64,000 nt of DNA, taken from Escherichia phage vB_Eco_J-01. Positions 12,808-12,886 of the stretch are shown piece after piece. The DNA is taken from sequence record PQ438393.1. One strand, given 5' to 3'. The number at the start of each line of letters is the position of its first letter. Within the stretch, counting starts at the first letter, position 1. A program made the position numbers and the translations under genes. The notes below the pieces were generated by a model. It was given only the letters and a program-made list of their open reading frames with translations, had not been told where the DNA came from and searched no databases.

Positions 12808-12886
12808 CCGGGGTGACAGGATTCGAACCTGCATACTCCAATTACTCGGTTAACGCCTGATTAGAAGTCAGGTGAGATACACCCCG
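12808..12886 (-). tRNA. aberrant tRNA-like (anticodon-like loop UCU, Arg-like)
   Basis: perfect 7-bp acceptor cggggtg/caccccg, canonical T-arm, CCA encoded; the only clean internal hairpin CCTGA-CTTCTAA-TCAGG sits where the D-arm should be, with an unpaired 23-nt stretch before the T-arm. Confidence 0.35.

Follow-up and report, generated by a model that had tools for sequence, protein, structure and literature searches.

The locus and the RNA it encodes

The 64,000-nucleotide stretch of DNA from Escherichia phage vB_Eco_J-01 (PQ438393.1) that was analyzed here in its entirety (hereafter, the window) carries a gene for a tRNA-like RNA of unusual architecture. This gene lies on the minus strand, from position 12886 to 12805, and its 82-nucleotide (nt) product has a 7-base-pair (bp) acceptor stem, a canonical T-arm, and an encoded CCA, with the D hairpin absent. 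For reasons given below, we consider it quite probable that the RNA is a functional elongator tRNA-Arg(UCU) that would read AGA codons for a phi92-like coliphage, with its core nucleotides joined in a new order. On the basis of sequence identity, the source of the window is such a coliphage (Justusliebigvirus), and the 1-kb stretch around the gene shares 99.7% identity with Escherichia phage JLBYU50 and 98.3% with phi92.

The gene sits within a same-strand cluster of 16 tRNA genes called by ARAGORN (10391-13136, minus strand), none of which is for Arg. No open reading frame (ORF) of at least 30 amino acids overlaps 12805-12886. A promoter-like site composed of TTGACA, a 17-nt spacer, and a TG-extended TATAGT is located upstream of the gene at 12898-12926 on the same strand, with 11 nt between the end of its -10 hexamer and the 5′ end of the RNA. 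This site is a consensus match only, with 11 of 12 positions in agreement, and is the best such match in the interval 10000-14500.

All parts of the RNA described here are encoded on the minus strand. The 5′ strand of the acceptor stem, CGGGGUG (positions 1-7; 12880-12886), pairs with 12809-12815 and is followed by a U8-A9 connector (12878-12879) that is invariant in all 64 sequences of the family alignment and in all 95 members of the wider class introduced below. The first strand of what we consider to be the D-stem, UCUC (12874-12877), then continues via a single A (12873) into the anticodon stem. This spacer, the equivalent of position 26, separates the D-stem from the anticodon stem and is 1 nt in all listed members of the wider class except L201 (2 nt). 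The anticodon arm, CCUGA/CUUCUAA/UCAGG (12856-12872), has U33 and A37 in place and presents the anticodon UCU (12865-12863). Its 3′ strand is joined by a junction, CGUUAACC (12848-12855), to the returning D-stem strand GAGU (12844-12847), whose last U lies opposite the first U of UCUC. There follows a D-loop-like strand, AAUUGGAGUAU (12833-12843), which can be numbered provisionally as A14 A15 N Y G18 G19 A20 G and then UAU ending in U48. This strand runs straight into the T-stem, and its AA, GG, A, and final AU are invariant in the 64-sequence alignment. The T-arm, GCAGG/UUCGAAU/CCUGU (12816-12832), is 98.8% paired in the same alignment, with G53-C61 invariant. The RNA ends (12805-12815) with the 3′ strand of the acceptor stem, CACCCCG, the discriminator G73 (12808), and CCA (12807-12805), as assigned from the sequence and from helix covariation.

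The junction that follows the anticodon arm carries a conserved CRUUAA in the main Arg subfamily, to which the window RNA belongs. Because other subfamilies carry AGAAA, UGAAA, or 3-nt linkers at this place, the sequences compared indicate that the junction sequence is no universal requirement.

Performance of standard tRNA models

ARAGORN did not call the gene in its bacterial, relaxed, or mitochondrial modes, and the only output of the latter two was a spurious antisense call. The Rfam tRNA model RF00005 matches 12808-12886 (minus strand) at 38.6 bits, which is above the gathering score of 29 and the lowest score among the 14 tRNA matches in the window. In that alignment, 15 D-arm model positions are replaced by 4 nt, and 20 nt are inserted in the variable region. 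The acceptor and anticodon stems are spaced by only 7 nt, and thus neither a D-arm hairpin nor a four-way junction is present. The acceptor stem, discriminator, CCA, T-arm, and anticodon arm (U33 and a purine at position 37) are all as expected for an elongator tRNA. ARAGORN called no transfer-messenger RNA, and a permissive search of 12760-12930 with 4,227 Rfam families returned, apart from the tRNA match, nothing above chance level, with E values of at least 0.58 for all other hits.

These results can be set against an earlier, sequence-only reading of the locus. That reading had noted the perfect 7-bp acceptor stem, the canonical T-arm, and the encoded CCA, as well as a single clean 5-7-5 hairpin followed by 23 nt, all of which are found in 12886-12805. 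It also saw correctly that no D hairpin exists and that no cloverleaf can be drawn: ARAGORN is silent, and RF00005 fits only by deleting the D-arm. Two of its structural assignments need revision. The hairpin that was taken to occupy the D-arm site is actually a standard anticodon arm with the loop CUUCUAA and the anticodon UCU, and the 23 nt for which no obvious pairing had been noted contain, first, the 3′ half of a D-stem whose other strand lies on the far side of the anticodon arm and, after it, a GG-A element like that of a D-loop. Neither covariance models nor ARAGORN brought out a standard cloverleaf, which was the outcome that the reading had named as evidence against itself.

Of the three explanations offered at that time, a tRNA carrying an insertion does not account for the RNA, as no segment can be removed to leave a cloverleaf, and nothing points to a tRNA-like regulatory RNA. 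The third, a degenerate tRNA, is taken up below.

A D-stem that closes around the anticodon arm

The first clue to the structure came from a homologue in Streptomyces phage Yaboi, in which the change from UCUC to UCGC is matched by a change from GAGU to GCGU on the 3′ side of the anticodon arm. To follow up on this correspondence, 64 distinct family members were aligned after filtering for acceptor, anticodon, and T-stem pairing only, with no requirement placed on the D-stem. In 100% of these sequences, a UCNN immediately after U8-A9 is complementary to an NNGU located 3′ of the anticodon arm. Alignment columns 11-13 pair with columns 40-42 in all 64 sequences, and nine different complementary combinations of the D-stem are used. 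Pair 12-41 is UA in 41 sequences, AU in 11, GC in 10, and CG in 2, while pair 13-40 is CG in 55, GC in 5, and UA in 4. The third inner pair is otherwise an invariant C-G, to which the wider class adds A-U and G-C. Among 95 candidates collected with no D-stem filter, all three inner pairs form in 83.

The other helices behave in the same manner. The acceptor stem (columns 1-7 with 72-78) is 99.3% paired and exhibits both-side changes in 7 of 7 pairs, and the anticodon stem is 95.3% paired with both-side changes in 5 of 5 pairs. Over the whole structure, pairing is present in 98.3% of cells and the covariation score stands at 0.806, compared with 0.195 in shuffles (none of 500 reach the observed value) and at most 0.16 when the pairing partners are slid by 1-3 columns.

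Two other pairings were considered and rejected. Pairing of UCUC with a second GAG, located inside UGGAGU, leaves 23 of 64 cells unpaired at one pair. A mini-hairpin (CCGA/UUGG) within the 23-nt segment, which appears in the minimum-free-energy structure, is paired in only 80.7% of cells over its three pairs (CCG/UGG) and shows no double changes.

Phylogenetic evidence of this kind leaves little room for a decaying tRNA-Arg pseudogene or a chance tRNA-like leftover in the cluster. Such an origin might explain why tRNA finders fail or report tRNA-OTHER or Undet, and why the homologue in phi92 was left without annotation. However, the degenerate tRNA suggested earlier is at odds with an RNA that is conserved and that carries compensatory changes in all four helices over 64 distinct sequences, drawn from unrelated phage families and environmental viral contigs. 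The score of 101.9 bits on the family model described below and the presence of the gene's own promoter-like site also speak against decay. We consider this explanation to be effectively refuted by the covariation.

Another explanation accepts that the RNA is functional and proposes that it truly has no D-arm, as is true of metazoan mitochondrial tRNA-Ser(AGN). The 7-nt and 23-nt connectors would then be flexible, and UCNN and NNGU would form no helix. Both connectors are indeed unpaired in the Rfam alignment, energy models do not favor a 3-bp helix, and D-arm-less tRNAs can work in E. coli. Nevertheless, this arrangement is very unlikely in light of the pairing in 64 of 64 sequences through nine complementary combinations, to which the filter contributed no bias, and the failure of the alternative partners. 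Flexible linkers would also not be expected to hold the AA..GG-A..AU bases invariant or to fix the spacer at 1 nt. Furthermore, the T-loop is fully canonical and its GG partner is retained, unlike in the mitochondrial cases.

A proposed fold with a reordered tRNA core

If the RNA is an elongator tRNA, its nucleotides can be mapped onto those of a canonical tRNA. Since a single nucleotide connects UCNN to the anticodon stem, just as position 26 connects canonical positions 22-25 to it, UCNN can be equated with these positions. The returning strand, NNGU, would then correspond to positions 10-13, and the A-A-N-Y-G-G-A-G that follows would correspond to A14, R15, 16, 17, G18, G19, A20, and 21, joined through U-A-U to positions 46-48. 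On this mapping, U8, A14, an A15-U48 pair, G18, G19, A20, and the canonical T-loop would all be kept. The segment spanning positions 10-21 (the 5′ D-stem strand and the D-loop) would have moved from the 5′ to the 3′ side of the anticodon arm, converting the four-way junction of the cloverleaf into a three-way junction. Such an order of core strands differs from that of every described cellular tRNA.

We envision that the D-stem stacks on the anticodon stem in 4 + 1 + 5 layers, which would equal the canonical length, and that GG docks on the T-loop as G18 and G19 normally do, giving the L-shape. Host arginyl-tRNA synthetase (ArgRS) would charge the RNA through A20, C35, U36, and G73, and host RNase P, EF-Tu, and the ribosome would treat it as an ordinary tRNA.

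The closest relative with a conventional structure is tRNA-Arg(tct) of T5-like phages (Tequintavirus; locus L070). The 3′ third of the window RNA is 97% identical to the canonical tRNA-Arg(UCU) of these phages, and the two share an identical T-arm and an acceptor stem that differs by one base in the 3′ strand. They also have in common the anticodon loop CUUCUAA, the UAU before the T-stem, a D-loop of similar flavor (AA..GGGAG versus AAUUGGAG), the presumed identity elements A20, C35, U36, and G73, and a location in a phage tRNA cluster. In a canonical tRNA-Arg, the D hairpin lies between positions 9 and 26 and the variable loop has 5 nt, whereas here the D-stem encloses the anticodon arm. Because the T5-like tRNA-Arg has a near-identical acceptor stem, the same T-arm, the D-loop motif AA.GGGAG, and UAU, these sequences fit an origin of the rearranged gene by duplication and deletion from a gene of this kind. 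The rearranged architecture may be a frozen accident of duplication and deletion that has spread horizontally, or it may confer resistance to host tRNA-directed nucleases.

A wider class with Arg and Ile anticodons

When the new structure was used to build a covariance model, family members scored 85-103 bits, including 101.9 bits for the window copy, and canonical tRNAs scored 35 bits or less. The few matches of intermediate score are divergent members of the class. A looser pattern scan combined with a structural filter yielded approximately 95 distinct RNAs with the rearranged topology. Six anticodons occur among them and no others, four for Arg (UCU, CCU, UCG, and ACG) and two for Ile (UAU and GAU). 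Each of the six is one base from another in the set, such that all can be linked to UCU.

Particularly informative is the base that follows GG: all 79 Arg members have A there, and 15 of the 16 Ile members have U. The discriminator is A73 in all 16 Ile members and G or A in 65 of 79 Arg members. Among the canonical tRNAs of the same loci, position 20 is A in 57 of 68 Arg tRNAs and U in 39 of 47 Ile tRNAs, and A occurs there in about 7% of tRNAs from other amino-acid families. In E. coli, the determinants of Arg identity are A20, C35, U/G36, and A/G73, and those of Ile identity include U20 and A73 (PMC9976931). With its GG-A, UCU, and G73, the window RNA carries the Arg set, provided that the A after GG is taken as position 20. 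Because the base after GG follows the anticodon, as it does in canonical tRNAs and as the E. coli determinants prescribe, this pattern is the strongest indication that GG is the equivalent of G18-G19 and that the class would be charged by ArgRS or isoleucyl-tRNA synthetase (IleRS).

Several divergent members deserve mention. One of these, L130 13348-13429, is an Arg(UCU) whose D-stem has G-C where C-G is usual and whose D-loop strand is longer, and ARAGORN reports it as a 98-nt tRNA-Arg(tct). Another, L069 2689-2766, is an Arg(ACG) with a 3-nt junction. Both L130 and L069 are jumbo or large viral contigs that also hold a member of the main type, so that two rearranged Arg tRNAs can occur in a single phage. 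At L055:9-87, an apparent Ser(UGA) member proved to be a normal tRNA-Ser with a long arm, truncated where the locus ends.

We lean, with modest confidence, toward the broader view that phages carry an unrecognized class of true Arg and Ile elongator tRNAs in which the L-shaped core is reordered, and which have spread horizontally and been missed by tRNA finders. If this is true, these would be the first natural non-cloverleaf tRNAs that serve ordinary bacterial translation.

Some observations weigh against a functional tRNA with a reordered core, both for the window RNA and for the class. Fourteen of the 79 Arg members carry U or C as the discriminator, and in one Ile(GAU) member GG is followed by A. 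The patterns used to collect homologues fix some of the conserved motifs, and therefore the conservation of those motifs is partly circular. The free energy calculated with nearest-neighbor parameters is -21.4 kcal/mol with the 3-bp D-stem, -22.7 kcal/mol in its absence, and -26.3 kcal/mol for the minimum-free-energy fold, and RNAalifold predicts neither the D-stem nor the mini-hairpin on the 64-sequence alignment. In the alignments used here, support for the D-stem is purely comparative, and energy-based tools are uninformative. U8 and the AA-N-Y-GG-A-G-UAU series are present and invariant, but the latter lies in a displaced strand, and the contacts that these bases would make (U8-A14, A15-U48, and G18/G19 with the T-loop) are beyond the reach of covariation. 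The comparative evidence supports the secondary structure well; the function and the three-dimensional fold are inferences.

Decoding context

The loci examined total 2.25 Mb and contain 1,310 tRNAs called by ARAGORN, covering all 20 amino acids, together with 121 rearranged genes. The latter sit in tRNA clusters, and an ARAGORN call overlaps only 4 of the 121. In no more than 3 cases does the locus also hold a canonical tRNA with the anticodon of the rearranged gene. For example, L130 has canonical Arg tRNAs with the anticodons ACG and CCG and rearranged Arg tRNAs with UCU and CCU. Similarly, L125 has canonical Arg UCU and ACG along with rearranged Arg UCG and Ile UAU. In the ORFs of the window, AGA makes up 25% of Arg codons (10.8 per 1000 codons), a share several-fold above E. 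coli usage.

Near-consensus TTGACA-type sites with a TG-extended -10 element are also found directly upstream of individual tRNA genes at 12757-12786, 11457-11486, and 13440-13469 (minus strand). There are 20 promoter-like sites compared with 12 ± 3.9 expected from shuffles, and their placement suggests that the tRNA cluster comprises many separate transcription units rather than one operon.

Distribution and annotation of homologues

At least 253 phage records in GenBank cover at least 80% of the window RNA in blastn searches. Many phi92-like phages have a copy with 100% identity, and identity is 83-88% in Felixounavirus, Kolesnikvirus, Kuravirus, Sugarlandvirus (T5-like), rV5-like, and Asteriusvirus jumbo phages, while Streptomyces phages carry a homologue of about 85% identity. 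The 64 distinct homologues come from phi92-like, Felix O1-like, Kuravirus, Sugarlandvirus, rV5-like, jumbo, and Streptomyces phages as well as uncultivated viral contigs, and pattern scans of IMG/VR added many more uncultivated viral contigs that carry the element. In the approximately 3-kb locus of the podovirus Kuravirus, the element is present and there is no other tRNA gene. The comparison with homologous phage loci that had been recommended in the sequence-only reading thus reveals a conserved family in unrelated phages rather than decay. Its exact conservation in many phi92-like phages, its 83-88% identity in unrelated families, and its score of 101.9 bits on the family model place the element far beyond chance. 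An identity of 83-88% between phages of unrelated families speaks for horizontal spread.

Two observations suggest how such spread might occur. In Klebsiella phage AmPh_EK80 (L071), an HNH homing endonuclease gene (983-1492) ends 9 nt from a rearranged tRNA-Arg gene (1501-1582), and in Escherichia phage SME50 the element lies under an annotation for an HNHc domain-containing protein. HNH homing endonuclease genes may be vehicles for the horizontal spread of the rearranged tRNA gene.

Among 185,579 genomes (one per prokaryotic species), a scan whose pattern was specific to the main Arg subfamily found four true members, all on short metagenome-assembled contigs; on three of these, further tRNA genes lie close to the element. 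Searches of 5,426 complete E. coli genomes and of 72,556 plasmids returned no match to the 82-nt sequence of the window RNA. With these four contigs as the only hits, we set aside a cellular or prophage origin, and the main Arg subfamily, which is the one scanned for in cellular genomes, looks confined to viruses.

This near restriction to viruses is also what might be expected of the main rival to a decoding function, in which the RNA is a non-decoding tRNA mimic that diverts a host factor. It could act as a decoy for a tRNA-Arg anticodon nuclease or another tRNA-targeting defense, or it could sequester ArgRS or a modification enzyme in the manner of a sponge. Defense systems that cleave tRNAs exist, and some are reported to cut D-loops (PMC12916289). 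The strong conservation of the anticodon loop would also suit a decoy. However, a decoy needs no 7/5 acceptor-T helix, no encoded CCA, no discriminator that follows identity rules, and no switch between A20 and U20 in step with the anticodon. In addition, the rearranged genes fill anticodon slots that are empty in the canonical set of the same phage, with 3 of 121 being redundant, and six anticodons from two amino-acid families fit decoding better than they fit a single nuclease target. We therefore regard a mimic as unlikely, and continue to prefer the view that these RNAs are elongator tRNAs. It is more speculative to propose that, for such tRNAs, the rethreaded D region has been kept because it escapes nucleases that cut D-loops or recognize the canonical D-arm.

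In GenBank, the gene is mostly unannotated, as it is in the phi92 record. Elsewhere it appears as tRNA-OTHER, tRNA-Undet, or tRNA-Val(aac), or lies inside a protein-coding annotation. The Val label is illustrated by Streptomyces phage Yaboi (L072 291-371; NC_048730.1 86686-86764), whose anticodon arm, ACUGG-CUUCUAA-CCAGU, is that of an Arg(UCU). Reading GUUAAC as the anticodon loop in this RNA, as the Val assignment demands, was rejected because it would put a pyrimidine at position 37 and because the segment is replaced by 3-5 nt in other subfamilies. The tRNA-Val(aac) label is probably a systematic mis-annotation across related actinophage genomes.

Four records of approximately 146 kb that are labeled "Campylobacter phage" (A150, A145, C3, and A110a; MG065639, MG065645, MG065656, and MG065689) match the 1-kb stretch around the gene at 97.6% identity. 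The Campylobacter host label of these records looks doubtful, perhaps owing to contamination or a mix-up.

Comparison with other non-cloverleaf tRNAs

Metazoan mitochondrial tRNA-Ser(AGN), with the anticodon GCU in human and bovine mitochondria and UCU in Ascaris, resembles the phage RNA in that its D hairpin is absent and it is a natural non-cloverleaf decoder, in this case of AGN codons. Unlike the phage RNA, the mitochondrial species no longer has a D-stem or the GG of the D-loop, often lacks the canonical T-loop as well, and adopts a flexible Y or boomerang shape that is served by adapted partner proteins. The phage RNA keeps a covarying D-stem, GG-A, and a canonical T-loop, and it must use ordinary bacterial machinery.

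The circularly permuted or split tRNA genes of Cyanidioschyzon merolae and some Archaea also have a non-standard order of segments within the gene. In those cases, processing restores the cloverleaf. In contrast, the phage gene has normal 5′ and 3′ ends and a 3′ CCA, and its rearrangement would persist in the mature RNA. Moreover, no ordering of the phage RNA segments gives a cloverleaf, and therefore the gene is not a circular permutation of one. Viral tRNA-like structures of the turnip yellow mosaic virus (TYMV) type likewise arrive at a tRNA-like shape via a different backbone path, but these form the 3′ termini of RNA viral genomes, contain a pseudoknot in the acceptor stem, and take no part in decoding.

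An engineered RNA, mini HisT, demonstrates that a non-cloverleaf tRNA can be tolerated by the E. coli machinery, although it is synthetic and its D-arm is wholly absent. HisRS, EF-Tu, and the ribosome of E. coli accept a fully D-arm-less tRNA without adaptation (PMC11551756). According to the same paper, published in 2024, every known bacterial tRNA adopts the cloverleaf (PMC11551756). Full-text literature searches, in which subscription journals lay largely outside the coverage, returned no description of D-arm-less, rearranged, or otherwise non-cloverleaf phage tRNAs, and a review of non-canonical tRNAs does not mention phages. A conserved class of non-cloverleaf phage tRNAs is thus apparently undescribed.

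The cloverleaf is treated as universal outside organelles, and the class would represent a conserved and widely overlooked exception in bacterial-type translation. If its members are functional, then the tRNA core tolerates a different strand order in nature, and ArgRS, IleRS, RNase P, EF-Tu, and the ribosome read shape and a few key bases rather than connectivity. Functional members would also offer a natural scaffold for the design of orthogonal tRNAs. On a more practical level, the tRNA repertoires of phages, as well as analyses of how AGA and AUA codons are served, are incomplete because the gene is usually unannotated or mislabeled in GenBank.

Other tRNA genes in the cluster

Three other genes of the cluster, all on the minus strand, have features of their own. 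The tRNA-Ser(UGA) at 12652-12741 finds its best Rfam match in the selenocysteine tRNA model (35.3 bits, with a gathering score of 47) rather than in the general tRNA model, and its phi92 homologue is flagged as a pseudogene. The gene at 10707-10782 is one of two that ARAGORN calls as tRNA-Met(CAU) and that have no match to the Rfam tRNA model at E ≤0.1. Folded in isolation, it has a non-cloverleaf minimum-free-energy structure with a weak D-arm. The other tRNA-Met(CAU), at 13061-13136, folds as a cloverleaf, with a D-loop, ACUGACGA, that lacks GG and a non-TΨC T-loop (AUUGUAA), and its phi92 homologue is annotated as a "hypothetical tRNA." It may be another atypical phage tRNA, possibly of the CAU-anticodon Ile type or of the Met type.

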